Shown one piece after another: positions 1 through 52,405 of a stretch of DNA of 64,000 nucleotides. This DNA comes from a virus. Its lineage: Duplodnaviria > Caudoviricetes. The position numbers and the translations under genes are program-made. The stretch is taken from the IMG/VR virus record IMGVR_UViG_3300028886_000084, positions 7,715-71,714 of that record; one strand, 5' to 3'. Every line of letters starts with the position of its first letter. Within the stretch, counting starts at the first letter, position 1. Below the pieces are notes generated by a model. The model saw only the letters and a program-made list of their open reading frames with translations, ran no database searches and was not told the origin of the DNA.

Positions 1-260
1 TAGGTTATCTTCCAGGGGGTGTCGCCGTTGAGCGGTACGCCTTTCAGGTCATCGTCGGTGATCGTTAGAGGGCTTGAACAATCATTACGGAAATACGGCA
101 CCTTGACGATCTCATCGCCTTCTCTCTTCATCTTCTCTGCCGTTATGCTATCCTCGAAGACCGCGTACGGTTTCAGTCTCGGCGGGGATTTCTCTCCCGT
201 AGAGGCATCCATCATGCCGCCCTCATCGGACCAATACATCAATACATATACTGTTCTCAT
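1..260 (-). CDS. hypothetical protein, 3'-partial (MRTVYVLMYWSDEGG...)
   Basis: Manual translation from ATG at 260, preceded by GAGGTGAAAGA SD/connector; open to the window edge; not in the ORF track. Confidence 0.7.
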   Translation of the reverse strand, partial: MRTVYVLMYWSDEGGMMDASTGEKSPPRLKPYAVFEDSITAEKMKREGDEIVKVPYFRNDCSSPLTITDDDLKGVPLNGDTPWKIT

Positions 261-264
261 TCTT

Positions 265-447
265 TCACCTCTCATATCTTGAGCAGGGCATCTTTCCTTC
301 TCTGACCGAGCAGTCGATGCTTTTGATTATGCACATCCTGGTGCCGTCCTTTTTCAGTTTGGAGAAACTGCATTTGCTGCAGTCGGCAAAGGTCTTCTCG
401 GTGGAAGGGTCGTACTCCTGTCCGAGGATCGGTGTCTGATGGATCAC
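265..447 (-). CDS. small Cys-rich hypothetical protein
   Basis: GTG start overlapping the upstream TGA (GTGA); CxxC motifs. Confidence 0.6.
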   Translation of the reverse strand: MIHQTPILGQEYDPSTEKTFADCSKCSFSKLKKDGTRMCIIKSIDCSVREGKMPCSRYER

Positions 448-725
448 TCCAGCACCTCCCAGTCCTCGCTCTGCAGGTCGTACTGCGACGCCAACCATCC
501 GATCAGTCTCTTGCCGTCATTCGTCACCATGTCGATGTGCCCCAGGATCTCCACTTCGCCTCTGAGCTTCTCGCTGTCGGTAAGAGGGTCGTGACATTCC
601 TTCCACATGCTGGCGGGGATGACCCTGCTGGGCACATAGTACAGGTAGGCGTTCTTGCCGTTCCACCTCATGTTACGCACCCTTTTGCCGTTCATCAATG
701 CTTCCAATGCATCTCCGAAATTCAT
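444..725 (-). CDS. tad2: DUF2829 / Thoeris anti-defence 2 (Tad2)-like protein
   Basis: MNFGDALEALMNGKRV..WNGKNAYLYYVP..HIDMVT..GWLASQYDLQSEDWEV matches the DUF2829 consensus as recalled; ATGA overlap at 722-725. Confidence 0.8.
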   Translation of the reverse strand: MNFGDALEALMNGKRVRNMRWNGKNAYLYYVPSRVIPASMWKECHDPLTDSEKLRGEVEILGHIDMVTNDGKRLIGWLASQYDLQSEDWEVLE

Positions 726-1168
726 ATCGATTCCTCCAATACACAACTGGCCCTCAGTATGAGCCTGTCATCATCCGTCCTTTTAGCGGACATCACCCAC
801 ATCTCATCCGTATCCCCGGATCTGAGATCGAGACGGAATACGGAGAGTCTGCCCCATGTCGACATGTACTGCAGTGTATCATCAAGATATAACCCTTGAT
901 AGACACTGCCGTCCTCGTTGGACACGAAGAGCATATCGAAACCTTCCTTCTGTGTCAGGTCATCCTTGTCCTTGTATCCGTCGAGCAGATCGGCAAGATC
1001 TGCCTTGTATTGTCCTCTCAGATCGCTGAGCACCGGATCGATGCCGTATTCCTTCTTCACTTCAAGATCGGACGGCGTGTATATGATGTCGATATTCTTC
1101 TTCTCCGCGTAGTTCAGCAGGACCCTTTCGTATAACGATAGCCTTCTTTCCTCTTTCATTTCATTCAT
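722..1168 (-). CDS. hypothetical protein
   Basis: 148-aa ORF in the coupled array; GGAG SD favours an ATG at 1159. Confidence 0.7.
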   Translation of the reverse strand: MNEMKEERRLSLYERVLLNYAEKKNIDIIYTPSDLEVKKEYGIDPVLSDLRGQYKADLADLLDGYKDKDDLTQKEGFDMLFVSNEDGSVYQGLYLDDTLQYMSTWGRLSVFRLDLRSGDTDEMWVMSAKRTDDDRLILRASCVLEESI

Positions 1169-1352
1169 CTCCTTTGATGGTAAGTCCCATCATCTTGCCG
1201 CACCTTGCGCAGTGATACTCCCATGTCCAGGTCCTTGACCTGTCGGCGGGAGCACTCTGCGGGTACGACACCCATTCTCCGCATCCGCAGTTCGGGCATG
1301 TGAAGTGTCCCATGCCGTCGTGCGGGCAGTATCCTTCTCCTTTGTCGTTCAT
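1161..1352 (-). CDS. small zinc-ribbon protein
   Basis: CPNCGC and CARCG pairs; ATG overlaps upstream stop. Confidence 0.7.
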   Translation of the reverse strand: MNDKGEGYCPHDGMGHFTCPNCGCGEWVSYPQSAPADRSRTWTWEYHCARCGKMMGLTIKGDE

Positions 1353-1624
1353 TCCTTCACCTCTTCATACGTTTCATTGAACACCGTCTCATTACATGGA
1401 TAACAGTCGTGCGAACCTTTGATTATATAATCCCCTTTGTGGAATTGAACGTCGCCCTGTAATGTCTTGATATAAACCTTATCAATCATATACCCCTCTT
1501 TGTAATTGAAACCGCATTTCGACACACACTGTCTGCCTGTGAACTTCTGTATCTCTTCCCAATTGTCACCTGTGAACTGCACGGCTTCGACCACTATGGG
1601 CTTCTTTCTGTATTTGCCTATCAT
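1349..1624 (-). CDS. conserved phage protein (YRKKPxVxEAVQ...GDYIIKG...YPC family)
   Basis: KYRKKPIVVEAVQFTG, IKTLQG, GDYIIKG, YPCNETVFNETYE motifs typical of a widespread phage family. Confidence 0.75.
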   Translation of the reverse strand: MIGKYRKKPIVVEAVQFTGDNWEEIQKFTGRQCVSKCGFNYKEGYMIDKVYIKTLQGDVQFHKGDYIIKGSHDCYPCNETVFNETYEEVKE

Positions 1625-1794
1625 TCCTTCGCCCCCTTGTTCCATAACTCTATTGCTTCTTTTTCAGTATCAGCGTGAGGCCCCTGTGCCTGACAACGGC
1701 AGCATTCGACGATCCACGGTCTGTTGTAATGTCCGATGTGCCAGGTCATCGCTTGTTTACATTCGCAGAACGGACACGATTTCAGTTCGGTCAT
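1621..1794 (-). CDS. Lar-like (restriction alleviation) zinc-finger protein
   Basis: Manual translation MTELKSCPFCECK...ECCRC...EAIELWNKGAKE; below the ORF-track length cutoff. Confidence 0.75.
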   Translation of the reverse strand: MTELKSCPFCECKQAMTWHIGHYNRPWIVECCRCQAQGPHADTEKEAIELWNKGAKE

Positions 1795-2012
1795 TCTCCA
1801 CCCCTCGGGTGTATATTACAGGTAGTGATTGGCATACCGTTAAGGTATCTCCTATTCCATATCTCCACTACTTCTTCCTTCGACCTCCCCATCAACGGGT
1901 CTATTGCAATCCTACAATGATTGCACACAATATACCACCAATCGGGATTGGATTTGTAATGTTTCAGTTCAACATCCATTCCGCAAAACGGACAGTCTTT
2001 GAGTTCGGTCAT
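1791..2012 (-). CDS. Lar-like zinc-finger protein
   Basis: MTELKDCPFCG...CNHC...EIWNRR. Confidence 0.8.
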   Translation of the reverse strand: MTELKDCPFCGMDVELKHYKSNPDWWYIVCNHCRIAIDPLMGRSKEEVVEIWNRRYLNGMPITTCNIHPRGGE

Positions 2013-2016
2013 TCCT

Positions 2017-2193
2017 TCACCTCACCAATGCAGAAATTAATTTTACGCATGAGTATACGAAATATACCCCTATTAACGGCCAACCTATGAATGTAACATA
2101 AAAAATGACTGCTGCGTCTAATGCTCTGAACATCTTATTCGGCTTCTTCACATCACCGTAGTATTCGTTTAAGAGTTCATCCGCCGAGGTCAT
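2017..2193 (-). CDS. small membrane protein
   Basis: ATG at 2193 in connector; hydrophobic stretch AAVIFYVTFIGWPLIGVYFVYSCV. Confidence 0.65.
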   Translation of the reverse strand: MTSADELLNEYYGDVKKPNKMFRALDAAVIFYVTFIGWPLIGVYFVYSCVKLISALVR

Positions 2194-2360
2194 TCCTTCA
2201 CTCTCCTGTTCCATTTCTCTATTGCCTCTTCTTCCCTCATTCTGTCTGTACCCATCCCACAGCAGGTGCACATAATATAACGGGTGCGGATGTCACTCCC
2301 CGCATACTTGTATATCTTCGCCTTGCCACCACAGAACGGGCATGGTTTCAGTTCAGTCAT
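2190..2360 (-). CDS. Lar-like zinc-finger protein
   Basis: MTELKPCPFCGG...CTCC...EKWNRRVKE. Confidence 0.8.
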   Translation of the reverse strand: MTELKPCPFCGGKAKIYKYAGSDIRTRYIMCTCCGMGTDRMREEEAIEKWNRRVKE

Positions 2361-2650
2361 TCCTTCGCCTCCAGTCTCTTTATCCTTTGTTTTCTTATCA
2401 GATTCCTGATACGATGGTCGAGAGCCCATACTTCCTTGAGGTCATCGTCATCCTTGATCATCTTGTACAGGTCCTCTTCCAGCACACCCCACATCTTCTC
2501 CGCGACCAATTCGGGCTCGTCGGGCCATATCTCGAGATAGTAGGTATGTTTACAGAACGGACATTCTTTTCCCGCAGTCCTTGAAGGTGTATGGCGCGGG
2601 ATTCCCGAATCCTCTGCGGGCAGTCCTAGAAATTCATTCTTGTCGGTCAT
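2357..2650 (-). CDS. hypothetical protein with partial Lar-like CPFC motif
   Basis: KECPFCKH; ATG at 2650 in connector. Confidence 0.65.
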   Translation of the reverse strand: MTDKNEFLGLPAEDSGIPRHTPSRTAGKECPFCKHTYYLEIWPDEPELVAEKMWGVLEEDLYKMIKDDDDLKEVWALDHRIRNLIRKQRIKRLEAKE

Positions 2651-2838
2651 TCCTTCACCTCCTTCGGTCTTATCGCGTAGCTCATGGATGTTATTGCCAC
2701 GATCAGTTGTGCAGAACAATGCTTGCAAACATTCAATTCGAACTTCTCTATGTTCCAGAACGGGTCTGCATTGAATGTCACTTTAGCTGTCCCGTCCTCA
2801 TCTTCAATTTGTTTCTGACAGATCGCACACTGAGTCAT
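2647..2838 (-). CDS. small zinc-finger protein
   Basis: CAIC/CKHC pairs; ends EVKE. Confidence 0.7.
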   Translation of the reverse strand: MTQCAICQKQIEDEDGTAKVTFNADPFWNIEKFELNVCKHCSAQLIVAITSMSYAIRPKEVKE

Positions 2839-3038
2839 TCCTTCAGCCTCCCGTCGTATGATCCGTCGTTGACGATGCCGATGGCATTGTTGATGTATAT
2901 CGAACATTTCCTGCAATAGTGCAACGTGGTGATCATCTGACCGAATGTTCCCATATCGGACTCCACGGTCACCTCGACCATCTCTTTCTTCTTGTCGAAC
3001 TGCTCGTGACACCTGTCGCATTCATATTTTATGGTCAT
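2835..3038 (-). CDS. small zinc-finger protein
   Basis: CDRC/CRKC pairs; ATG at 3038. Confidence 0.7.
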   Translation of the reverse strand: MTIKYECDRCHEQFDKKKEMVEVTVESDMGTFGQMITTLHYCRKCSIYINNAIGIVNDGSYDGRLKE

Positions 3039-3175
3039 TCCTTTTCCTCCTCTTTCTTCTTTCTGCACCTTATACAGAGTTCATCATCCCAATATTCTCT
3101 CATCTCCCCGCATTCCTTGCACTTGGGTGCGGCGTTGTAGAGCCCTTCGATGAATGGTTTGAACCCTTCGCTCAT
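3035..3175 (-). CDS. small zinc-finger protein (46 aa)
   Basis: Manual translation MSEGFKPFIEGLYNAAPKCKECGE...LCIRCRKKKEEEKE; both ends coupled by ATGA overlaps. Confidence 0.7.
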   Translation of the reverse strand: MSEGFKPFIEGLYNAAPKCKECGEMREYWDDELCIRCRKKKEEEKE

Positions 3176-3504
3176 TTCTTCACTCTCCCGTTCCACATCA
3201 GCCACGCCTCGTCAGGGCTGTAATACCATCTGGTACCGGCATAACATGAGCTGCATGCTATGCGGTATCTGTCCCCGCAGAAGTCCCTCTTATGCGGATC
3301 GGTCTCCAGCTTCGGGGATCCGCCGCAGAACGGGCAGGGCAAAAAGTCAATTTGACTTTCATTGACTTTTCCTGTCTTTTCCCTGCCTGCCACATTTTTC
3401 ACTATCACCTTGGCTTTCTCATCCCCGTCAGGGATCAAAGATAGGAGAGATAGTAACTCCCTCCCTGTGATCGTGTACATCTTGTCCATCTCGAAATCGG
3501 TCAT
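3172..3504 (-). CDS. hypothetical N-domain fused to a Lar-like zinc finger
   Basis: C-terminal LPCPFCGG...CSSC...MWNGRVKK. Confidence 0.75.
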   Translation of the reverse strand: MTDFEMDKMYTITGRELLSLLSLIPDGDEKAKVIVKNVAGREKTGKVNESQIDFLPCPFCGGSPKLETDPHKRDFCGDRYRIACSSCYAGTRWYYSPDEAWLMWNGRVKK

Positions 3505-3707
3505 CTTACCACCCTGAATATCCTTTCTTCGCTGATTCCTTTCTTCAATCCTTCCAACAGGAACGACTTGTTCTTGTATATCTCACTCCACAGTTCATCA
3601 TCATCAAGATTAGCACCGTAGGGCATACTCGCAATCAATGTCTCTATCTGTTTTACAATCTTATCGATCGCTCTTTCTTCTGTTATTCCTTCACTCTCCT
3701 GTTCCAT
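3501..3707 (-). CDS. hypothetical protein (expected coupled ATG at 3686 reads ATA)
   Basis: 68-aa ORF; connector reads GAATAAC instead of GAATGAC. Confidence 0.55.
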   Translation of the reverse strand: MEQESEGITEERAIDKIVKQIETLIASMPYGANLDDDELWSEIYKNKSFLLEGLKKGISEERIFRVVR

Positions 3708-3868
3708 TCTTTCATCACAGTGCTTTTACCATATCCCCCCCACACAAACTTTTCAAAGTTCATATGACATTTGTTACAGTATATCACATAGGTCTCATCA
3801 CGTCCATCCGTCTTATCACGCAATTCTACATCACCGCCACAGAACGGACATGGTTTCAGTTCGGTCAT
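3683..3868 (-). CDS. Lar-like zinc-finger protein
   Basis: MTELKPCPFCGG...CNKC...EWNRRVKE. Confidence 0.8.
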   Translation of the reverse strand: MTELKPCPFCGGDVELRDKTDGRDETYVIYCNKCHMNFEKFVWGGYGKSTVMKEWNRRVKE

Positions 3869-4050
3869 TCCTTCACCCCCCAATACGGTCTGCAGACTTC
3901 GAAGAGGTAATCTATGCATCTCCTATCCAAATATCTCCAACGACCTTCGTTGACGATGTTCGGGCATCTTACAGCATCTGCGATGCTCTGGTATGTCCTG
4001 TCCTTGGAATGGACGTACTCCTTGAACCTCAGTTTGTTGATCCTGTTCAT
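3865..4050 (-). CDS. hypothetical protein
   Basis: Coupled ORF ending GVKE. Confidence 0.65.
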   Translation of the reverse strand: MNRINKLRFKEYVHSKDRTYQSIADAVRCPNIVNEGRWRYLDRRCIDYLFEVCRPYWGVKE

Positions 4051-4289
4051 TCCTTCTCCTCCCTGAATCTCTCATCCCACCCCAGGATCCATTTTGCCAT
4101 CTGGACTGCACGTTCCCACTCAACATCATCGTATACGGAGAAGTCGGGAGTAAATCCCTTCTGTTCAGCGTGTATCTCATCCGTACCGATGAATACGCCG
4201 AACACATACTTGCTGTCGGGATGTGTCCCCGTTGTTCCCCTTATGCTCATCTGAGTGTGCTCTGTCAGATCGAATACTGCGATGGTCAT
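4047..4289 (-). CDS. hypothetical protein
   Basis: Coupled ORF ending EEKE. Confidence 0.65.
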   Translation of the reverse strand: MTIAVFDLTEHTQMSIRGTTGTHPDSKYVFGVFIGTDEIHAEQKGFTPDFSVYDDVEWERAVQMAKWILGWDERFREEKE

Positions 4290-4447
4290 TCCTTCACCTC
4301 GTATACATCCAATACCTCCGGCATGGGGTCATGCAGATCACAGAGTTCATCCCAGACGATGTCCGCCATGCCTTCCATGTATTTTCTGGCATCCTCAACG
4401 GTCTCGAAACGATCCGTATCTATTGCCATAATACATCTGCATCTCAT
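4286..4447 (-). CDS. hypothetical protein
   Basis: ATG at 4447 in connector; ends EVKE. Confidence 0.6.
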   Translation of the reverse strand: MRCRCIMAIDTDRFETVEDARKYMEGMADIVWDELCDLHDPMPEVLDVYEVKE

Positions 4448-4629
4448 TCTTTCACCTTCTCTACCTTCTTTCCGCACGAGGGGCAGTAGTTCAACGGCAT
4501 ACAGTCGCCGTCCGGCCACACGATATACAGCTTATCGTCGATGATCGTGATACCATCTCTGATGTCATTCATCATCACTGCATCGCCCATGGCGTCGCAG
4601 CAGATGTTGATCTTCCACTCATCGGTCAT
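4444..4629 (-). CDS. small Cys-rich protein (CC...YCPSCG)
   Basis: ICCDAM and LNYCPSCGKK; ends KVKE. Confidence 0.65.
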   Translation of the reverse strand: MTDEWKINICCDAMGDAVMMNDIRDGITIIDDKLYIVWPDGDCMPLNYCPSCGKKVEKVKE

Positions 4630-4874
4630 TCTTTCACCCTCCTGTACGGTACCCTCTTACACGCTTTGATGTATTCATCACGGTGCATCTTCAACCATTC
4701 TTCCAACAATCTCAGTTCGAGTACGTCCTTCATCGGGCCAGCATATCTTGTGGCGTGACATAATGCTACAGCAATATACAGCTCCTTTGCCGTCTCATAC
4801 TCGTGAATGATGTTGTCTCTGTTGTTCTGTGCCATGTCATATGCGCACACCCTATGAAGGTTGAGTCTGTTCAT
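4626..4874 (-). CDS. hypothetical protein
   Basis: ATG at 4874; ends RVKE. Confidence 0.65.
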   Translation of the reverse strand: MNRLNLHRVCAYDMAQNNRDNIIHEYETAKELYIAVALCHATRYAGPMKDVLELRLLEEWLKMHRDEYIKACKRVPYRRVKE

Positions 4875-5224
4875 TCCTCCGCCCTCCTGTTCCACAGTGC
4901 TATCGCTTCTTCTTTGGACATAGCATCGAACATATGATCCACCCATACGTTGCAGTCCTTACAGGTGATACTGACCTCGCTCTTTCCCGGGTCGTTCTCT
5001 ATCAGATGCACATCTGTCGAACCGCAGAACGGACACGGTCTGAGTATAGAGCTGGCCTCTACCTCTTTTGAATTGACCTCGTTCCACAGCCTTATCGCTT
5101 TGTCTTTCTTCTCATCGACGGCGAATATGCGACAGTTCGCACACCCCACTTTCCACAGATCCTTCTCTCCGATGTAGACCTCAGCGATCCCTCCGCAGAC
5201 AGGACACGGTTTCAGTTCGGCCAT
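4871..5224 (-). CDS. tandem double Lar-like zinc-finger protein
   Basis: ELKPCPVCGG..CANC..LWN followed by LRPCPFCGS..CKDC..LWNRR. Confidence 0.8.
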   Translation of the reverse strand: MAELKPCPVCGGIAEVYIGEKDLWKVGCANCRIFAVDEKKDKAIRLWNEVNSKEVEASSILRPCPFCGSTDVHLIENDPGKSEVSITCKDCNVWVDHMFDAMSKEEAIALWNRRAEE

Positions 5225-5228
5225 CCTT

Positions 5229-5465
5229 TCACACCCCCATGACAGACAATGTCCACATCAAGACGACAAACGTCAATGCACAGAGTGTCATTATCACCAG
5301 TCCGACAAGCGCATACTCCTTCAGTTCAGGTGTATTGTAATCATTACCGAACCTCGTGTAATCCTTTATCAATTCGTGTGCGAGCACCCACAGGGATGCA
5401 ACGAATACCCATACCAACACCACCAGGCCTGCATTGAAGAATGGTTCGAGTGTCTCGGAGATCAT
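5229..5465 (-). CDS. small membrane protein, two TM helices
   Basis: Two long hydrophobic segments. Confidence 0.7.
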   Translation of the reverse strand: MISETLEPFFNAGLVVLVWVFVASLWVLAHELIKDYTRFGNDYNTPELKEYALVGLVIMTLCALTFVVLMWTLSVMGV

Positions 5466-5929
5466 TCCTTTGCCTCCTCCTTATATTTGAAATTCTTACA
5501 TTTGCAGGCGCAGCTCATCTCGTTGAATCTGTCTACTCTCATCACACATTCACTGATGCTGTAGTCCTTACAGTAGGTCTCGGGCAGCATGCTCACTGCG
5601 GCACCGTCCGCCAGATATCCTGTGAGTGCTTCACGATCATAATGCTCACAGAACCTGCATTCACGTCTGGGGGAGAATCTGTCGCACTTGTCCCACCTGC
5701 GGTATACTACATCCTTGTCCCCTGTGGCACCCACGATCAGATCCGGCGAGAGGGTACAGTAGAACATACCTATTCTGCCGCGGAAGTATGTCACCATCTT
5801 GCAGTGCTTGCATGAATGTTCGCCCGTGGTGGCCTCCATCTCAGCCACACGGTCCTTCAGCCATTGGACATCACGGTCATCCTGTTCTTGTATGGCCTTC
5901 TCGATCTTGCGTTTTCTGAATAGTCTCAT
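5462..5929 (-). CDS. Cys-rich hypothetical protein
   Basis: ATG at 5929; several CxxC; ends EAKE. Confidence 0.7.
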   Translation of the reverse strand: MRLFRKRKIEKAIQEQDDRDVQWLKDRVAEMEATTGEHSCKHCKMVTYFRGRIGMFYCTLSPDLIVGATGDKDVVYRRWDKCDRFSPRRECRFCEHYDREALTGYLADGAAVSMLPETYCKDYSISECVMRVDRFNEMSCACKCKNFKYKEEAKE

Positions 5930-6123
5930 TCTTCCACTCTCCCGTTCCACACCTTGAGGATGTCATCCAGATCCCCGAGACCATTATGGAATTTGAATAC
6001 CGTTCTGCAATTGTCACATCTCACACACGGATCGAACGGGTTGCACCTGTCATCCACATCATAATAATAGAGATGGAGATTGGTGTTCCCGCAGAACGGA
6101 CATGGTTTAAGTTCTGGATCCAT
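5926..6123 (-). CDS. Lar-like zinc-finger protein
   Basis: ELKPCPFCGN...CDNC...VWNGRVEE. Confidence 0.8.
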   Translation of the reverse strand: MDPELKPCPFCGNTNLHLYYYDVDDRCNPFDPCVRCDNCRTVFKFHNGLGDLDDILKVWNGRVEE

Positions 6124-6127
6124 TCTT

Positions 6128-6505
6128 TCACTCTCCTCTTGACAGCGTGTTCTCCCCGAACGGGAAGTTGCCGAGACAGGTCACCTTCTCAAGCGGCAGA
6201 TCGATGTAGAGGAAGTGTATCTCCCACCACTCCGAACCATCGTATTCGTTACGGAACATGATGAAGGGCGTACCTGTCTTGTTGTACCCCCTCATGCGAA
6301 GTCCTTCGTGGATCATGGTGCCTCCGAAGCCATCATCATACTCCGTGTCCCTGGCAAGCTCCTCGAAGTTCTCCTTGGTGATCTTGCACCTCTCCGGATC
6401 CTTCCCGCCCCATGGGTCGAGCTCGATCCATATCATCTTCACATCGTCCCATGTGAGGCCATTGGCCTCGAGCTTGGAGATCGTCTCATCCCAAAGATTG
6501 GTCAT
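6128..6505 (-). CDS. conserved phage hypothetical protein (NLWDET...YDDGFGG...EYDGSEWW)
   Basis: Motif pattern seen in many phage hypothetical proteins. Confidence 0.7.
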   Translation of the reverse strand: MTNLWDETISKLEANGLTWDDVKMIWIELDPWGGKDPERCKITKENFEELARDTEYDDGFGGTMIHEGLRMRGYNKTGTPFIMFRNEYDGSEWWEIHFLYIDLPLEKVTCLGNFPFGENTLSRGE

Positions 6506-6894
6506 TCTTTCACCCCCTTCACTACGATCTGCATGTCCGCATAGGGGCTGAGCCTATCCATCCACTCTTTGAATTCGAACTCGTCGGATTCATCGTAATC
6601 CTCGAGGACATCTACCATGTGGACTCTTTCCGTTGACACTGTCAATTCAACACTGTAGTAGTCGGTATAGAATCTGTATTCGAGGCATATCAACCTGCAA
6701 TTGTCCCTATCGATGGCGACCGGGTATAGGAACCAAGCTAATTGGCGTGAATCGTCGACATCCTCGTGAACGAAATATCTGTTGAGATATGTTTCTGCAC
6801 CTTCAAGGGACATACATTTCTTCTCGTGTTCAAGACATACGCTCTCTTTGTCGAATGTCTTTCCACAACTGTCGCACTTGTATACGTGTTTCAT
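6502..6894 (-). CDS. C2H2-like zinc-finger hypothetical protein
   Basis: YKCDSCGKTF...CLEHE..C; ends GVKE. Confidence 0.7.
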   Translation of the reverse strand: MKHVYKCDSCGKTFDKESVCLEHEKKCMSLEGAETYLNRYFVHEDVDDSRQLAWFLYPVAIDRDNCRLICLEYRFYTDYYSVELTVSTERVHMVDVLEDYDESDEFEFKEWMDRLSPYADMQIVVKGVKE

Positions 6895-7286
6895 TCTTTC
6901 ACCCCTTGGAAATCGAACTTCGGTATCCTGTTGTGTTCTCTGAGTTCTTCCTCGAACTTCTGCTTCCCTGTGCCGTTCGGCATGATAAGGATATCCAATA
7001 TCCCTCTGACATATCCCTTCCTGTATCTCTCCAGCACGTGCTCCTCTATCTTTGCAAATATCCTTTCCCGTGCCTTAGTATATTCTTCGCGATTGTCATC
7101 CAGCCACTGTTTCAGTATGGGCCTCGCGACTCTTCCGGGGTAGCGTACGGCATCGCGAATGCAGATGTATTCATACATCGTGCGGATCGCTTCATACTGC
7201 ATTTCGAGATCATCGTCGTTCCTTGCAGGCGTGTGTGCCGATGCCCTGTGATTGTACTTCTGTATGATCTTCAGCAGCCTGCTCAT
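6891..7286 (-). CDS. hypothetical protein
   Basis: ATG at 7286; ends GVKE. Confidence 0.65.
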   Translation of the reverse strand: MSRLLKIIQKYNHRASAHTPARNDDDLEMQYEAIRTMYEYICIRDAVRYPGRVARPILKQWLDDNREEYTKARERIFAKIEEHVLERYRKGYVRGILDILIMPNGTGKQKFEEELREHNRIPKFDFQGVKE

Positions 7287-7846
7287 TCCTCTCCCTCCTC
7301 GATCTTGCTGTATATCATTCTTTTCGATGTCACACCGCCGGTCTTGGGGTGTCTGCGCAGATAGTTCAGTACCCAATCGAACGTTTCCTGGTCGGGTGCC
7401 ACGCATTTGATTGCGATCATTGAACTGCCAAGCAGCGGTGTTGTTGCCTCGGGCAGTAATCTCCAATCGATGTTCTTCTCTTCCAACGCCGTTGTCACAT
7501 CATCGACATCGCCAAGTGAGCCCTGTACGAAGAAGATGAGCCACTTGTCATCCTCTTCATAATCTGGATCGTCATGTGCCTTTATGTCCTCCTGAACATA
7601 ATCCGGCACTTTCTCGAATGCAGTGTACTCCACCTCGTATTCCTCATCCCCGCCGTCATAGACAAGTGAGAAGTCGCCTTCATGAGAGCAGTGCATTCCC
7701 GGCAGCAGACACTCATAATGTCTGCGGAAGAAGCTGTCGATCTCCCTTCTGTCACGATCGACCTGCCACGGCTCACCGTAATGCCTGCTGATCATTATCG
7801 CTTTCTTGCACATGTTGCATCTCAGATACATCCTTGCATTCGCCAT
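7283..7846 (-). CDS. hypothetical protein
   Basis: 187-aa ORF in the array. Confidence 0.7.
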   Translation of the reverse strand: MANARMYLRCNMCKKAIMISRHYGEPWQVDRDRREIDSFFRRHYECLLPGMHCSHEGDFSLVYDGGDEEYEVEYTAFEKVPDYVQEDIKAHDDPDYEEDDKWLIFFVQGSLGDVDDVTTALEEKNIDWRLLPEATTPLLGSSMIAIKCVAPDQETFDWVLNYLRRHPKTGGVTSKRMIYSKIEEGEE

Positions 7847-8089
7847 TCAATCATCCTCTGCCAATCTGTCGAGTGTACCTTTGTATCTCACCATGAGCTC
7901 TTTGATCTTCTCTTCAAGTTCGGGCGATATCACATAGGGTTCAGAACCGATGGCTTTCGCATCGGGGATCATCTTCGATAATGACGGATCCTCTACCGTC
8001 TTGTCCGATTCGGAACCTGCTGTGATGGAGCCGGATACCTTGTCTCCGAGTTTCTCCATCAATACCCTGTGGAACTCCTCGTCGTTCAT
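7847..8089 (-). CDS. hypothetical protein
   Basis: ATG at 8089 in connector. Confidence 0.65.
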   Translation of the reverse strand: MNDEEFHRVLMEKLGDKVSGSITAGSESDKTVEDPSLSKMIPDAKAIGSEPYVISPELEEKIKELMVRYKGTLDRLAEDD

Positions 8090-8223
8090 TCTTTCACCCA
8101 CTTTATCTTACATCTGTACGGGATGCGAACATCCTCATCCTCATCTGCACAACCCATGTTATCCAAGAACCTGTAATAGTCCTCATCATTCGGGAACGTG
8201 ATCTTCAGTGTGACCTCTTTCAT
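8086..8223 (-). CDS. small hypothetical protein (45 aa)
   Basis: Manual translation MKEVTLKITFPNDEDYYRFLDNMGCADEDEDVRIPYRCKIKWVKE; coupled at both ends. Confidence 0.7.
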   Translation of the reverse strand: MKEVTLKITFPNDEDYYRFLDNMGCADEDEDVRIPYRCKIKWVKE

Positions 8224-8387
8224 TCTCCTCCCTCCAGCCATGCGTGCAGTTCATCCATGCACTCTGTACAGAGACGGTAATGGCGCGGTGCCATGCCTTC
8301 GTACATGGTGAAGACATCCCTGCGCCTGTCGGCTCCGTTCTGCTTCTTCCCGCAGTGGGGGCAGTACCACTCATATGTCGCGTTCAT
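8220..8387 (-). CDS. small zinc-finger protein
   Basis: YCPHCG...LCTEC. Confidence 0.7.
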   Translation of the reverse strand: MNATYEWYCPHCGKKQNGADRRRDVFTMYEGMAPRHYRLCTECMDELHAWLEGGE

Positions 8388-8746
8388 TTCTTCACCTTCC
8401 TCTTCTTTTTCTTGTTGGCCTTCGCCATATTGACCACATTGCAATCGTCCTTCAGATCCATGAGGATGAGCGTCTTCTTGAAACTGAATGAAGTGGCGTC
8501 GGTCCAGTCTGCGACCGGCTCCTGTGTGGCCTTGTCCATCATCAGATACGATCTCTCGCCGGTGATCTTGTTCTCGGCCAGCACGACCATGTACTTGCCC
8601 TGCAGGGTGAACCCGTCAGTGTTGTATTCATCGAGCTCTCTTTCGTAGATCTGGGTCATATCATTCGTCCACAGTCTCCACTGTGCGTTCTCCGCCACCA
8701 GTGTGCCGTATCCTTTGTCATCATCATCGTCGTCGAAGAATCCCAT
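8384..8746 (-). CDS. hypothetical protein
   Basis: ATG at 8746 (MGFFDDDDDD); basic tail. Confidence 0.7.
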   Translation of the reverse strand: MGFFDDDDDDKGYGTLVAENAQWRLWTNDMTQIYERELDEYNTDGFTLQGKYMVVLAENKITGERSYLMMDKATQEPVADWTDATSFSFKKTLILMDLKDDCNVVNMAKANKKKKRKVKK

Positions 8747-8750
8747 TGTA

Positions 8751-9224
8751 TCACCCGCAGTACCATGTGTGCACTGAGCCACCCTTGATGTAGGATATCA
8801 CGGTGACATCCGATTTTTGGAAGTATTTCACGTTCCCCAGCACCCATGTGACGTTGTCGACCGACTTGGATGACGATGATGCGGTGTAATACTTCAGAAC
8901 GACCGATTCCTTTTCCATGCAGACAGTGTATTTGGCGAAGAGATATTTGCTCGGCAAATAACTGCCTGTGAGGGGATTGTACGAGTATCCTTCGGTCTTG
9001 TAGTAGCTTTCCGGGGTGCCTACCTCGTACACTGTGCCTTTGATGGTCACCTTGCCATGGTTCTCCGTTGCCGCGTTCAGTCTTCCCGAGAATGTGGATT
9101 CGGCATCATCCATGTTGATGAGTGCGACAATCACCACACCGCACAGCATCGCTGCGATGCACACCGCGGCAACGACAGGGAACACACAATCCCAGACCTC
9201 CGGGTCAGTCAACATCCTCATCAC
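8751..9224 (-). CDS. membrane-anchored protein
   Basis: N-terminal hydrophobic helix. Confidence 0.7.
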   Translation of the reverse strand: MMRMLTDPEVWDCVFPVVAAVCIAAMLCGVVIVALINMDDAESTFSGRLNAATENHGKVTIKGTVYEVGTPESYYKTEGYSYNPLTGSYLPSKYLFAKYTVCMEKESVVLKYYTASSSSKSVDNVTWVLGNVKYFQKSDVTVISYIKGGSVHTWYCG

Positions 9225-9483
9225 TCCTTGTCTCGTCCAGATGTTTCAAACTCTCGTTCACCATCTTGTTGATCTCGTCAAAGCTCATGCCAGCCTCGCA
9301 GCCTTTAAGAAAGAGCATGTCCTCCAAGCTGGACAGACCGTGAGGGAAGCAATCCCTCCCGGCTCTCATCAGCTCTTCCGTGAACTCACATGCTGTACAC
9401 TGCTGAAATCTCCATCCGGCGATGCAGGATATGCATTCTGCCCTAGGCAGATTCAGCTCCCCGAAATCTGTATTGAATCTCAT
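9205..9483 (-). CDS. Cys-rich hypothetical protein
   Basis: CISC/CTAC; coupled to the upstream gene. Confidence 0.65.
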   Translation of the reverse strand: MRFNTDFGELNLPRAECISCIAGWRFQQCTACEFTEELMRAGRDCFPHGLSSLEDMLFLKGCEAGMSFDEINKMVNESLKHLDETRSDEDVD

Positions 9484-9920
9484 TTTTCCTCCTCCAGGAT
9501 CTTGGTACTGTGCATCTCTTCTCCGTTGCTGTCCATCACCATCGGCACGGTCTTGACCTTGCAGATGTATCCTTTTTTTGCAAGTAGACAGCGTGCACGT
9601 CCCTCGGTCTCCTCCGAGACCACCAAAGTGTCCCTCTCGTCCATGACCGGTAAGTCGCTGACGTCATATATCGTAGAGTACATCACGGGGCCGAATTCGG
9701 GCCTTATGTCCGAACGCTCAACATACCTCGCCACATCGTCCAAACGTGCCCTGTAGGGCCTTACAGGCACGCTGCGTGAGCTCTGAGCAAGTTCATCAGA
9801 TGTCACCCCGATCACAAGTGCTGCGTTCTTGAACGATGCGATGGTCATCGCAGCGTCCAGAAGCTTCGCATGGCCTTTGTGGAACACGTTGAAGGTGCCT
9901 CCGACCACCACTTGACTCAT
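9480..9920 (-). CDS. coaD: archaeal-type phosphopantetheine adenylyltransferase (HIGH-family nucleotidyltransferase)
   Basis: VVGGTFNVFHKGH, IGVTSDE, VRPYRAR, LVVSEET and MHSTKI match the archaeal/eukaryotic PPAT pattern. Confidence 0.8.
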   Translation of the reverse strand: MSQVVVGGTFNVFHKGHAKLLDAAMTIASFKNAALVIGVTSDELAQSSRSVPVRPYRARLDDVARYVERSDIRPEFGPVMYSTIYDVSDLPVMDERDTLVVSEETEGRARCLLAKKGYICKVKTVPMVMDSNGEEMHSTKILEEEK

Positions 9921-10144
9921 ATTTTCCCCTCCGTATATCTCAGAAGTGCGGTCTCACGGCACTCAAAACCCAGGATTTCGCTTCTTTTGACCAATTTTGC
10001 GGTGGAATTGTCGAATCTTGAGTCGTTGATCTGGATGAAATCCCCTTCATCGTGGATGTCGAGGGAGTTCATGATCATGTTGAACGTATTTTCGGTGACC
10101 TCACAGCAGAGATCGCCGGCCCTGAGGTGCCAAAGTACGTGCAT
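9917..10144 (-). CDS. hypothetical protein
   Basis: ATG at 10144 overlaps upstream TGA. Confidence 0.6.
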   Translation of the reverse strand: MHVLWHLRAGDLCCEVTENTFNMIMNSLDIHDEGDFIQINDSRFDNSTAKLVKRSEILGFECRETALLRYTEGKI

Positions 10145-10674
10145 CAGCTCTTCTCCCATCTGAGTTCCTTGACACATTCGCGGATCGAAAGGGCATAATT
10201 CACTATTCCGGCCTTTTCAAGGTCGTTCGCATACCCTTCAAGCCTCGTCAGAGCGTCTGCGGGGGCATTTTTGGTGCCTGTTTCGAACACGTCGCCGTGT
10301 TTCCAGTACTTTTTGAGTGTTGCAACGGCGGCATCGTGCATGAAACCGGTGATTCCGTAGGTGTCGGCGAGGAAACTGGCCTCGTTGATGATATTTTCGG
10401 TCAAAATGACCCTGTTTTTGATCAGATTCTGCATCAATTTGGCCCAATGGACCATGTAATCGAGCCAAGCCTTCGAATATTCGTCATCTTGGTTGTTCTT
10501 TACGACCTCTTCCCAGTCATTTTGCAGATCTTCTCTTATTTCCAGGGGTTCAAGCAGGTCGATGTACCCAGAAATGCGTTTTTCGAGGTCGGAATATCTG
10601 TCTTCTGCTCTGTGGTACGCTTTTTTCAGTGATTCTATCTCTTTTTCAGTATTCGGCGTAATATTTTTGCTCAT
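10144..10674 (-). CDS. conserved phage hypothetical protein (WAKLM...ADTYGITGFM...YWKHG); first gene of the early array
   Basis: ATG at 10674 downstream of a TATA box; motif seen in phage hypotheticals. Confidence 0.75.
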   Translation of the reverse strand: MSKNITPNTEKEIESLKKAYHRAEDRYSDLEKRISGYIDLLEPLEIREDLQNDWEEVVKNNQDDEYSKAWLDYMVHWAKLMQNLIKNRVILTENIINEASFLADTYGITGFMHDAAVATLKKYWKHGDVFETGTKNAPADALTRLEGYANDLEKAGIVNYALSIRECVKELRWEKS

Positions 10675-10695
10675 TTTTTCACCGAAAAAGAGATA

Positions 10696-10725
10696 GTAGT
10701 ACAAACTATTTAAACTTTGTACTAC
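10696..10725 (-). promoter_or_regulatory. archaeal TATA-box promoter flanked by a 10-bp inverted repeat (candidate operator)
   Basis: GTAGTACAAA-ctatttaaac-TTTGTACTAC; the spacer reads GTTTAAATAG on the minus strand. Confidence 0.75.
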
Positions 10726-22385: not shown

Positions 22386-25300
22386 TCACCCGATCGTTCC
22401 ATTTTGGACGGTGACAAAGATCACACCATCTCCGCCTCTTCCGCCGTTAACAGTATTCCTGGAAGAATATATACCGATTTGTGATGCTCCGCCTCCGCCC
22501 CCGGATCCGAGAGAACCATTGATCGATTCGCCATCACGGACGGATGCTCCGCATCCTCCTTTTGCGGTCCCTGTCTTGTTCGGGATTATGATGGCCCCTC
22601 CGCCACCTCCGCCGCCTCCGACGTAATTATTCATGGTGATATCTCCATTTATATTCCTCAATCCGCCTGATCCCATATTGAACTGTCCGGTTGGAGCAGT
22701 ACCGCTCTGGCCATCATATGCGCTAAATGTTTCGCACTGTCCTCCGTTTCCTCCTTTATAACTGTTGTTACCCGGTGTTACACTCCACGTGCCTGGGTTG
22801 TCCCATCTTGCCGCTGCAGGTCCTCCTGCGCCGCCGTTCACTGTATTTGTGGCACCATTGACTGTGATGGATGTATTGCCTCCGGAGTGACCGTCTTCTC
22901 CAGCTGTATTATATCCGATACGAGTCTCTCCTCCGGATCCGCCGCTGCCTATGCTATAAGTGACTGTTATAGCACCGGTCGGCGCAACAGTATATGTGTA
23001 TGACCCGTACTCTCCAGATGCTCCCCCTGCGCCGCCACTGCCTCTGAAGCGATCTTTATCTGTAGCATAATATGTATAATCCATTGCACCGCCACCGCCG
23101 CCTCCTCCGCCACCTATCAGGTATGCCGTGATGACCATGTCGTTCGAACCAGATGGTGTGATTGTAAACGAACCGCCCCCTGCGATGGTTATGAGTTTTT
23201 GACCCGCTGAATCGATCGTTGCCAGGTCTGCATAGATGGTCGTGGTCCCGTCTGGATTCGGTCTAAAATATGAACCGGCGAGCAGCGTGGTTTTTACATT
23301 ATTCTTATAATAATACAGACTGGCAGCGTAGATGTAATTGTCTCCTGACTGGATCGGTGTCCAGATATAGGGGATCGAAGGGGCCACGGCGTCGGTATAT
23401 TTTGGATATTGCAGATAGATGTTTCTTTCAGGTCTTGAATTTGATTCGTCCCACTTCATCGTTACCTGGATCATGGTCGCAGGTGTTTGTTTCGGGTATA
23501 ATGTACCCATTGTCAGATTGATGGTACCTTTGATCATGTAGGGGTGCCCAGCCAGATATTGTACGGGGGCACTTGTGATATAACAATTCTCCCCATTGAT
23601 CTCTTCGATATAATCGGCCGCAGGATCATTATCATTAAACCCATTCGCGAGCCTGGGGTTGTTCGGGCGTTTTAGATAGAAAAGATTTCCATTGGTCCTC
23701 ATCTGCCAACGGTCTGTGAATTCCTTGAGTTTGGAGATCCAGGTGGCATTATCCCACTGAACACTATTCGCCACAGTGTTATCTGGGGATTGAGGGGATG
23801 TTCTGATATAAGATAGGGATATTGTTTTAGATACACCAAGGTCCATACAGTATGATCCGGTATATCCGTGGCAGACGATGGGGATCGTGGTCAGACGGGA
23901 GTTGTATGTTGTATTGACTGATTGTATATCTCCGAAATTCAAAGACCCAAGTCCGGATGCGACAATTATTGCACGAAGACGATCATCATTTGTTGGAACC
24001 CATACTGGCAGTACGAGTGCTTGACGGACATTGTCTATGGTGGACCTGTTCAGTGTCACCTCATATTCTGTATCGCTTGTCCCTTTCAAAAACTTATAGT
24101 AAGGGGATATCATCTCCCAGTTGAGAACACTATTGAATCCAGAGGGGGGTTCGATCTTGTTATTACCAGTAGTAGGTTCTGTTGGCAGATTTTTGATGGA
24201 TATCTCTATCTCAGTACAATCATTGTATGCTAAAGCCCACACGTATACCTTGTTGCCGTCATATGTTTCCATTAAAAATGCACTACTGTAATCCGTATAA
24301 GCAGATGGGATGGATAATGTATCGATGATTTGTCCATTCCCATCTTTACTCTTACATTTTTTGATCTTGATCATGGGTGCGCTATTTTCTTTAAATGTGC
24401 CGCCGCCTGCTTCGAAAGATAATACAAAAGCTGCTTCATCGACCAGTTCCCATTTCAATGCAATATAGTCGAATACATTCAATCTCCCTTTGTCATCCAG
24501 CCTGTATGTCGTTACAGGATACCCTGTATATTGTGCTGTATATGTCTGGTTCTTGTCTGCGGCATAAGGGGTGGGATTCCACCCGCTGAAAAGATAATAA
24601 TATTCTTCAGTCGCGGGTTTATACGGGGTAGTGCCAGTATATTCTGGTACTGTGTTGGGGCTCACATTTGAATCTATCAATAATGTGGTGTCATCATAAT
24701 TTTTCCATGTGATCGTATATTTTATCGGTTGGAACTGTGCATAGAGTGTCTGGTCAGCACCTGCGTTAAAAACTGTTGTCGATACTATTCTATTTCCGCC
24801 TGTAGCTGCCGTGAACCACCCGCTGAACGTGTAATACTGTTTGGTCGCTGTCGGCAATGCCCCGTATTGCTGACCTAATATGACGGTCTTTGTGCTGCTC
24901 CCTGACAGTGTTCCGCCATTTGTCGTAGCATCGAATGTTATCGTATATGTTCTGGATACAACATCGGCGCTAACGGTCGTATCTGCAATTATATTTGTCA
25001 GTACATACGGGTTATCTGTTGTTGTCCAATCTTCTCCACCATGTTCACTCAGAGAAAATTTATCAAATTGATAATGGGATGTGTCTGTTACAACGAACTG
25101 GATTGTGCGATTTTGCCCTACCACAACGGGAATTACTGTATTTACACCTCCAGAGAATGTAACTCTTGTCCCGTCGATGTAATAATCACCAACTTCGCTC
25201 ATGTTGATGATGGTTAAATTCACAATTGGTTTAGCAGTCCATTGTGCATATAGCATTGTCGATCCAGATACGACGTATGAGTCCCCCGCGCCTCCCACTC

Positions 25301-25775
25301 TTGTTCCGCCAGTGTAACTGGTATACCAGCCATTGAAGGTATAACTCGGATCTGATATGGAAGGAAGCTGTATCTGTGTTCCTGACAGGACAGTATCGGA
25401 TTGCGGGGTCGTTCCGTGATCCGATTGATATGATACTGTAAAATAGATCGGTTCCGGGGAATATGTCACGCTTACCGTGACCGTGCTATCTAACGTTTGA
25501 TTTCCGATTGTGCCTCTCACAATAAAAGAATATGTCCCTGCCACAGTGGGATGCCCGTTAAGTTTGAATTGTGCATAGAACCAATATCCGTGGGATCCCT
25601 GTCTGCCGCCAGCACTGACGTCCTGGAAAGTCATACCAGTGGGAATTGTTCCGGAAACAAGTACACAGCTTCCCGTCGTACTCGATGATAAACCTGTAGC
25701 GGTTTTTACAGAATGTGTGGATAGATCTTCATCGCCGACATAAATGGAGATATCTATGGTGGGATAATCAGCCAT
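22386..25775 (-). CDS. distal-tail/adhesin-like protein with Ig domain, InlB-B repeats and Gly-rich C-terminus
   Basis: Three Y/FT(V/I)..F(N/S)GW repeats; GHPTVAGTYSF Ig-like motif; LIGGGGGGGGG Gly-rich domain. Confidence 0.7.
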   Translation of the reverse strand: MADYPTIDISIYVGDEDLSTHSVKTATGLSSSTTGSCVLVSGTIPTGMTFQDVSAGGRQGSHGYWFYAQFKLNGHPTVAGTYSFIVRGTIGNQTLDSTVTVSVTYSPEPIYFTVSYQSDHGTTPQSDTVLSGTQIQLPSISDPSYTFNGWYTSYTGGTRVGGAGDSYVVSGSTMLYAQWTAKPIVNLTIINMSEVGDYYIDGTRVTFSGGVNTVIPVVVGQNRTIQFVVTDTSHYQFDKFSLSEHGGEDWTTTDNPYVLTNIIADTTVSADVVSRTYTITFDATTNGGTLSGSSTKTVILGQQYGALPTATKQYYTFSGWFTAATGGNRIVSTTVFNAGADQTLYAQFQPIKYTITWKNYDDTTLLIDSNVSPNTVPEYTGTTPYKPATEEYYYLFSGWNPTPYAADKNQTYTAQYTGYPVTTYRLDDKGRLNVFDYIALKWELVDEAAFVLSFEAGGGTFKENSAPMIKIKKCKSKDGNGQIIDTLSIPSAYTDYSSAFLMETYDGNKVYVWALAYNDCTEIEISIKNLPTEPTTGNNKIEPPSGFNSVLNWEMISPYYKFLKGTSDTEYEVTLNRSTIDNVRQALVLPVWVPTNDDRLRAIIVASGLGSLNFGDIQSVNTTYNSRLTTIPIVCHGYTGSYCMDLGVSKTISLSYIRTSPQSPDNTVANSVQWDNATWISKLKEFTDRWQMRTNGNLFYLKRPNNPRLANGFNDNDPAADYIEEINGENCYITSAPVQYLAGHPYMIKGTINLTMGTLYPKQTPATMIQVTMKWDESNSRPERNIYLQYPKYTDAVAPSIPYIWTPIQSGDNYIYAASLYYYKNNVKTTLLAGSYFRPNPDGTTTIYADLATIDSAGQKLITIAGGGSFTITPSGSNDMVITAYLIGGGGGGGGGAMDYTYYATDKDRFRGSGGAGGASGEYGSYTYTVAPTGAITVTYSIGSGGSGGETRIGYNTAGEDGHSGGNTSITVNGATNTVNGGAGGPAAARWDNPGTWSVTPGNNSYKGGNGGQCETFSAYDGQSGTAPTGQFNMGSGGLRNINGDITMNNYVGGGGGGGGAIIIPNKTGTAKGGCGASVRDGESINGSLGSGGGGGASQIGIYSSRNTVNGGRGGDGVIFVTVQNGTIG

Positions 25776-51994: not shown

Positions 51995-52405
51995 ATGTAT
52001 ACTCCCGATCCTGAACGCAAACTGAACCCCACCAAGGCCGATCAGGATAAAGCCGACAGAGCACGTCGTACCTCCGGTCTTCAAGATGTCATAAGATTGA
52101 TCATGGAATCTCCTTTGAGACAAGGCGAGATCGTCAGACTATCACAGGAGAACCCCATCCCCCTCAAGGAACTGAAGGGTGCGAATGTAGAGGCACAGGT
52201 GGCCGTGGTCCTCGCACAGGTCAAAGAGGCCGTCAGCGGCAATGTCAAATCCGCCGAATGGTTATGCAAATATGCAGGTTGGGAACCGGTCAAGGAGAGT
52301 AAGGTCTCGGTCGAGTCCGTGACATTCATCGATGATATCCCTCGCCCTGCCCTTGAACCCGTGATCACTGCCGTTGCAGAATCCGTGAAGGAAGACGATG
52401 CCTGA
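51995..52405 (+). CDS. terS: terminase small subunit
   Basis: AVSGNVKSAEWL, C-terminal TFIDDIP, immediately upstream of TerL. Confidence 0.7.
   Translation: MYTPDPERKLNPTKADQDKADRARRTSGLQDVIRLIMESPLRQGEIVRLSQENPIPLKELKGANVEAQVAVVLAQVKEAVSGNVKSAEWLCKYAGWEPVKESKVSVESVTFIDDIPRPALEPVITAVAESVKEDDA

Follow-up and report, generated by a model that had tools for sequence, protein, structure and literature searches.

The pocket of Tad2 from phage SPO1 holds 1''-3' gcADPR by means of W25, N26, W73 and D79; T78 forms a hydrogen bond with the adenine, and S76 is also a residue of this pocket. In HgmTad2 the gcADPR pocket is built from W21, N22, G23, W87, L88, S90, T92 and D93, and binding of gcADPR is lost in the mutants W21A/N22A and S90A/T92A/D93A. 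The pocket can be retuned. In MoTad2 and Tad2_71 it is adapted to His-ADPR or N7-cADPR, which serve as signals in Thoeris of types II and IV. The Tad2 homologues of a recent screen collectively block CBASS, Pycsar and Thoeris of types I, II and IV, and because of this functional diversity the ligand is not readable from Tad2 membership alone. Tad4, another inhibitor of Thoeris, co-purifies with ThsB, and one of its loops is predicted to block the ThsB active site.

Tad2-like genes of archaeal viruses are already in print. They have been described, on the basis of homology, in the Asgard virus JinchiV3 and in a Methanosarcinaceae provirus that carries NARP2 and Tad2. According to the Asgard report, the putative hosts have no Thoeris, no CBASS and no complete type II CRISPR-Cas. 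A preliminary description of the DNA discussed here had called archaeal examples “little characterised”. This is fair, although such homologues had been reported before, so that a Tad2 in an archaeal virus is not in itself a novelty.

The window, i.e., the whole stretch of 64 kb that was analysed, belongs to a 71.7-kb IMG/VR record, which is a linear fragment of about 75% completeness. Near-identical DNA is found in bovine gut metagenomes. The gene of interest and its ribosome-binding site are located as follows:

444 to 725, minus strand: Tad2-like gene (PF11195/DUF2829), 93 amino acids, ATG at 725-723, stop codon at 446-444
733 to 737, minus strand: GGAGG, ribosome-binding site of the Tad2-like gene as read from the sequence, 7 nt upstream of the ATG

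The ATG (723-725) shares the letters ATGA with the TGA (722-724) of the upstream gene (722-1168), an overlap that suggests translational coupling. A longer ORF on the plus strand (432-899) runs across the same DNA and was rejected as an antisense artefact.

By every feature examined, be it profile, sequence, fold or pocket motifs, the 93-residue protein is a genuine member of the Tad2 family. It matches PF11195 (Tad2-like, formerly DUF2829) with an E-value of 3.1e-19 and 69.7 bits, the cut-off being 25 bits, and covers positions 1-73 of the 73 of this profile; the full-length DUF2829-type protein that the preliminary description had seen here is thereby confirmed. Also matched are phrog_1048 and phrog_872, two PHROG families without known function. 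A phmmer search of the PDB recovered all solved Tad2 proteins by sequence: SptTad2 (8wjd, 7e-13), the Myroides Tad2 (8v3e/9eib, 4e-10), HgmTad2/AcrIIA7 (8kbi, 5e-10) and SPO1 Tad2 (8sme, 1e-8). An AlphaFold2 model, made with 53 homologues in the alignment, has a pLDDT of 94.3 and is predicted to display the N-terminal helix, the antiparallel sheet and the variable insertion of the Tad2 fold. When this model was compared with the PDB by Foldseek, the best 24 matches were all Tad2/AcrIIA7 chains, with query TM-scores of 0.64-0.82 among those listed, and the next match had an E-value of about 1. The database holds 339 homologues at E ≤ 0.001, 13 of them with 66-95% identity. The close relatives all come from uncultured metagenomes, and a search of IMG/VR with the protein recovered distant ones only (29-46% identity). 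On one metagenome contig (L025, 314-843) two differing PF11195 genes, encoding 99 and 73 amino acids, stand in tandem.

The Tad2-like gene is one of many small genes that are read in the same direction. The features of this array are:

257 to 10704, minus strand: co-directional, densely packed array of about 30-40 small genes, including the Tad2-like gene, which extends into the 7.7 kb of the record that precede the window
9480 to 9920, minus strand: cytidylyltransferase-like gene of the array, best model archaeal-type pantetheine-phosphate adenylyltransferase, below the model cut-off
10144 to 10674, minus strand: Tad4-like gene, first of the array, PF25186 with an E-value of 1.3e-16 and 61 bits (cut-off 25), phrog_9822
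10696 to 10725, minus strand: putative archaeal-type promoter from which the array would be read, TTTAAATA at 10707-10714 between the arms of a 10-bp inverted repeat

The likely ATG of the Tad4-like gene is at 10674; GGTGA stands directly before it, and the candidate promoter is found 32 nt upstream. PF25186 bears the name “Type I Thoeris inhibitor Tad4”; it is the second anti-Thoeris family in the operon of the Tad2-like gene. No sequence relative of the Tad4-like protein was found in the PDB. Several Lar-like zinc-ribbon genes complement the array, and Lar_restr_allev is seen in relatives. The 10 ORFs in the 7.7 kb before the window yielded no Pfam match apart from a weak Lar-like zinc ribbon. 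Homologues of the cytidylyltransferase-like protein were retrieved from related viruses and from one metagenome contig only.

The gene order recurs elsewhere. On a 102-kb contig, the Tad2 of which is 85% identical, Tad4 is followed by the cytidylyltransferase-like gene, an isochorismatase, several Lar-like genes and then Tad2. In another cattle sample, contigs join across cassettes of the array within 740-4866 (740 to 1153; 1342 to 3685 or 3862). A form of the array without 741-1152 occurs in that sample, and the Tad2-like gene is kept in it. All this fits an accessory counter-defence region with cassettes that vary between samples while Tad2 stays. In two metatranscriptome runs from bovine gut, contigs of the RNA libraries fall on parts of the array between 8.9 and 10.7 kb; the Tad2-like gene lies outside these parts, and contigs of this kind cannot show absence.

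The other genes of the window are those of a tailed virus. The terminase, two VapE-like helicases and an SNF2 helicase are recognised by Pfam; the portal, prohead protease, major capsid protein and tail genes are recognised by homology to vir335, a virus discussed below. A search of the Protein Atlas classifies the capsid as SU10-like, with a taxon label that reads “Viruses” only and names no host. The large terminase (52398-54239, plus strand) is extended at its C-terminus (residues about 421-534) by a part that gives weak intein/HINT matches, and the terminase of a relative has the same weak intein match. A protein of the tail region (22386-25775, minus strand; 1,129 amino acids) combines Listeria-Bacteroides repeats (Flg_new) with a glycine-rich domain. 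Surface proteins of gut Methanomassiliicoccales often contain the Flg_new repeat. The PCNA named in the preliminary description was not found by Pfam; the replication-module proteins of 273 and 317 amino acids have no Pfam match.

The host is very probably an archaeon and is resolved to the level of a methanogen order. Among 50,697 phage records, portal and capsid each match a single one, Caudoviricetes sp. vir335 (BK063680), and its recorded host is Methanomassiliicoccales. The two viruses have 23 of the 86 genes of the window in common, and these span the head, tail and recombination/replication modules. A bacterial host had been hinted at by the terminase: its best match in a cellular genome is in a record titled “Dialister hominis” (G001), and its other cellular matches, at 32-42% identity, are in records titled Clostridia or Christensenellaceae. 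The idea was dropped once the “Dialister” genome had proved to be that of a methanogen. One contig of this record (“cleanbin_000012” in its title), G001 contig C2, is a complete related virus of 90.7 kb with an exact terminal repeat of 831 bp and 18 shared genes. The remainder of the genome has 59% GC, its tetranucleotide profile correlates with that of vir335 at 0.92-0.95, and it contains McrA, two TBP genes and two MtaB genes; MtrA was not found among its markers. G001 represents a Methanomassiliicoccales-type, methyl-reducing methanogen, and the public title “Dialister hominis” is wrong.

The distribution of the capsid points in the same direction. Of the 261 species genomes in the methanogen order to which G001 belongs, 9 have a homologue, compared with none of the 151 genomes of the order that holds one of the Bacillota terminase matches; nor was the capsid found in the four Bacillota genomes with a terminase match that were searched directly. 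One of the capsid matches (G175:C1) is an entire virus contig of 83.7 kb. The virus contigs of G001 and G175 are co-binned virus genomes, not integrated proviruses, and neither of these related viruses has a Tad2-like gene. In vir335, a gene annotated as nucleotide kinase (vir335_00004; L023, 719-1561) encodes an N-terminal PF11195 domain that is fused to DUF3310.

The promoters, too, look archaeal. The motif TTTAWATA occurs 6 times in the window against 1.4 times expected, always between the larger ORFs:

10707, 29328, 37444, 37455, 40585 and 54254: TTTAWATA sites, candidate archaeal TATA boxes

Three of the sites are placed 22-57 nt upstream of a start codon, two in the divergent region at 37.3-38.2 kb and one between terminase and portal; the two at 37.4 kb overlap a doubtful ORF of 86 amino acids. 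The motif is enriched about 4-fold in the window, 3.6-fold in the relative of 90.7 kb and 15-fold in vir335. Sites of the sigma-70 type show no enrichment in the window. A spacing of 22 nt between TTTAWATA and the start codon hints at leaderless transcripts.

Is the virus nevertheless one of Bacillota, and the gene an ordinary phage Tad2? We consider this very unlikely. The terminase matches beyond G001, all of them in Clostridia- or Christensenellaceae-titled records, and the metagenomic origin of all close Tad2 relatives speak for it, but the “Dialister” record, which matches best, belongs to a methanogen, the terminase alone is shared with the Bacillota genomes, the capsid being absent from those searched, and the portal, the capsid and another 21 genes connect the window with a Methanomassiliicoccales virus. 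The promoter motif is of archaeal type. The archaeal virus of the preliminary description thus stands, on the strength of the genes shared with vir335, the identity of G001, the capsid counts and the TATA-like boxes.

Profile searches of the 261 species genomes of the probable host order gave the following counts:

ThsB_TIR (PF08937): 19 of 261 genomes
TIR_2 (PF13676): 37 of 261 genomes (32 over the cut-off)
Either TIR family: 48 of 261 genomes
SIR2_2 (PF13289): 25 of 261 genomes
SMODS, CD-NTase type (PF18144): 7 of 261 genomes over the cut-off, G001 among them
ThsA_Macro (PF20016): 3 of 261 genomes
Peptidase_C14 (PF00656): 9 of 261 genomes

At least 8 genomes of the order have Thoeris-like operons, mostly of TIR with caspase or of TIR with Macro. 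The architectures differ. In G122, G131, G190, G210 and G212 a caspase-like protease stands between two ThsB genes, which resembles type IV Thoeris. ThsB adjoins ThsA_Macro in G024 and G162, a type II-like arrangement, and a SLATT/DUF4231 protein in G022, where the pair (ThsB, then SLATT/DUF4231, at L053 5225-6225) is type VII-like. Cassettes of ThsB_TIR, caspase-like Peptidase_C14 and ThsB_TIR are seen at L054 5554-7370, L055 743-2540, L056 860-3294 and L057 4772-6574; in the literature we found no report of a TIR-caspase cassette in this methanogen order. The cassette of G212 is located at G212:C9:44772-46574, and the pair of ThsB and ThsA_Macro in G162 at G162:C136:39394-40778. At L052 6395-7779, ThsB is followed by ThsA_Macro, with a SIR2_2 gene 1 kb upstream; SIR2_2 is close to ThsB in G162 only. 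In bacteria, the corresponding Thoeris types signal through His-ADPR, N7-cADPR or cADPR.

Type I Thoeris in its canonical form, with a SIR2-SLOG ThsA next to ThsB, was not encountered in the host order. G001, the genome binned with a related virus, has no match to ThsB_TIR or TIR_2; a SMODS gene of the CD-NTase type (105.7 bits) is present in it at G001:C69:1756-2244. Judged from genome sequences, TIR families and Thoeris-like neighbourhoods indicate that a minority of species in this archaeal order possess TIR signalling systems. The preliminary description had postulated TIR/CBASS-type signalling in the host and had proposed to look for Thoeris and CBASS there. The TIR half is supported indirectly, by the Tad4-like gene and by the Thoeris-like operons of the host order; the CBASS half can point to SMODS in the 7 genomes but finds no backing in the pocket residues of the viral protein.

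These residues deserve a closer look. W21, N22, G23, W77, L78, S80 and D83 are all present in the 93-residue protein, and no variation is seen at W21, N22, G23, W77, S80, Q81 and D83 in the alignment of 53 homologues. Among them are the counterparts of W25, N26, W73, S76 and D79 of SPO1 Tad2 and of W21, N22, G23, W87, S90 and D93 of HgmTad2. The gcADPR pocket is thus kept, except for the threonine in contact with the adenine (T78 in SPO1 Tad2, T92 in HgmTad2), which is replaced by Tyr82. All ten sequences of the protein's own clade (56-95% identity) have Tyr82, and the clade-specific changes G20R/K, I73R and L85Q are near to it. In view of these changes the ligand may differ from gcADPR. The signals that the corresponding Thoeris types use in bacteria, taken together with Tyr82, allow for several ligands.

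A second pocket has to be considered. c-di-GMP and cGAMP are ligands of HgmTad2 and SptTad2, and the second pocket of MoTad2 takes up cUMP/cCMP. In HgmTad2, mutation of R31/N85, S47 and F70 lowered the binding of c-di-GMP and cGAMP. The alignment places V31, P47, I60 and I75 at the positions of R31, S47, F70 and N85, and the insertion that builds the dinucleotide pocket comprises about 31 residues, compared with 41 in HgmTad2. The alignment accordingly sets the protein apart from the cyclic-dinucleotide-binding subclass of HgmTad2 and SptTad2, which is marked by an insertion of 35-41 amino acids together with R31, S47, F70 and N85. Of the binding-pocket check that the preliminary description had suggested, the gcADPR part thus comes out positive but for Tyr82, and the cyclic-dinucleotide part negative. 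An ADP-ribose-type pocket appears to be retained, with one change that may matter; a dinucleotide pocket of the HgmTad2 type appears not to be.

It is therefore unlikely that the protein is mainly a sponge for a cyclic nucleotide of the CBASS/Pycsar type, bound at the second, inter-dimer pocket. SptTad2 is, it is true, the best sequence match in the PDB, and SMODS exceeds the cut-off in 7 of the 261 host-order genomes, including G001, the one binned with a related virus; yet the residues of the second pocket are exchanged, its insertion is short, the conserved part is the ADP-ribose pocket, and the operon partner is an anti-TIR protein.

A role other than signal sequestering is quite unlikely. 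The DUF2829 fold might serve to bind other nucleotides or RNA, for instance to capture a guide RNA or to assist nucleotide metabolism as in DUF2829 fusions. AcrIIA7 has almost the structure of HgmTad2, and a basic groove of its tetramer binds tracrRNA; the PF11195 domain of vir335, fused to DUF3310 and annotated as nucleotide kinase, is an example of a fusion, and positions 20 and 73 carry additional basic residues in this clade. The protein, however, has the stand-alone form of validated sponges, its pocket motif is invariant, and it shares an operon with Tad4-like and Lar-like counter-defence genes. As to the AcrIIA7-like variant, CRISPR-Cas of type II, the tracrRNA-dependent kind, is to our knowledge essentially absent from archaea, which argues against it.

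We consider it fairly probable that the protein is a Tad2-family sponge of a virus of Methanomassiliicoccales-type methanogens from rumen or gut and that it sequesters an ADP-ribose-derived TIR signal. Early in infection, the protein would probably be made from the long operon of small counter-defence genes. It would most likely assemble into a homotetramer, in which the Trp-Asn-Gly loop and the Trp-Leu-Ala-Ser-Gln-x-Asp segment may form inter-subunit pockets. These pockets would sequester the ADP-ribose-derived alarm molecule made by host TIR proteins of the ThsB type, be it 3'cADPR, His-ADPR, N7-cADPR or another one, and the host effector would never be switched on. The Tad4-like protein, encoded by the first gene of the operon, might by analogy block the TIR enzyme directly. 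One pathway would then be attacked at two points, as we propose. A more specific idea is tentative, and we regard it as rather doubtful: the pocket with Tyr82, Arg/Lys20, Arg73 and Gln85 could be an adaptation to the TIR signal of methanogens, which might be N7-cADPR or His-ADPR, as expected of the operons of caspase and Macro type, or one that has yet to be described. If it were true, the pair of Tad2 and Tad4 would indicate that signalling of the Thoeris type is active in gut methanogens and an important barrier to their viruses.

That the Tad2-like protein belongs to its family is what a specialist would expect. Our literature search found no paper that names both Thoeris and Methanomassiliicoccales, and we know of no experimental work on signalling immunity in methanogens or on its evasion by viruses. 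The locus supplies two small and easily expressed viral proteins, the Tad2-like and the Tad4-like one, and the same archaeal order supplies the host-side counterparts, the TIR-caspase, TIR-Macro and TIR-SLATT operons. With both sides at hand, the question of signalling immunity in methanogens can be put to a direct test. As methane producers, rumen Methanomassiliicoccales are of interest to agriculture, and factors that limit their viruses are therefore of practical relevance.

How does the protein compare with the known systems? SPO1 Tad2 (gp34.65; PDB 8SME/8SMF/8SMG) shares with it the Pfam family, the fold, the stand-alone form and the size (89 versus 93 amino acids); the WNG loop and the W..S.(T)D segment, which hold 1''-3' gcADPR, are kept. 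The two differ in that their identity is 28-29% in the structural alignment, Thr78 of SPO1 Tad2 is Tyr82 here, the insertion after strand 2 has 24 residues in SPO1 and about 31 here, and the SPO1 host is Bacillus instead of an archaeon. HgmTad2/AcrIIA7 and SptTad2 (PDB 8KBI-8KBM, 8WJD) are the best matches in both structure (TM 0.79-0.82, E down to 6e-10) and sequence (phmmer 7e-13). W21, N22, G23, W87, L88, S90 and D93 of the gcADPR pocket of HgmTad2 are all conserved; this does not hold for R31, S47, F70 and N85, and the insertion is shorter by 10 residues. In an archaeal host, the tracrRNA binding of AcrIIA7 is not to be expected. Tad2 of the Myroides odoratus prophage (MoTad2; PDB 9EIB, 8V3E) has the same fold (TM 0.75-0.76), its segment W-T-P-S-V-S-D being W-L-A-S-Q-Y-D here; Thoeris types II and IV, the His-ADPR and N7-cADPR systems to which MoTad2 and Tad2_71 relate, are architectures found in the host order.

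With JinchiV3 and the Methanosarcinaceae provirus the locus has in common that a PF11195-type gene of a tailed archaeal virus was recognised by homology. It differs from them by its Methanomassiliicoccales-type lineage, by the Tad4-like partner and by the Thoeris-like operons in the host order. To the earlier archaeal cases the present analysis adds the Methanomassiliicoccales-type lineage, an operon headed by a Tad4-like partner of the Tad2-like gene, a pocket change peculiar to the clade, and the presence of Thoeris-like operons in the order of the host.
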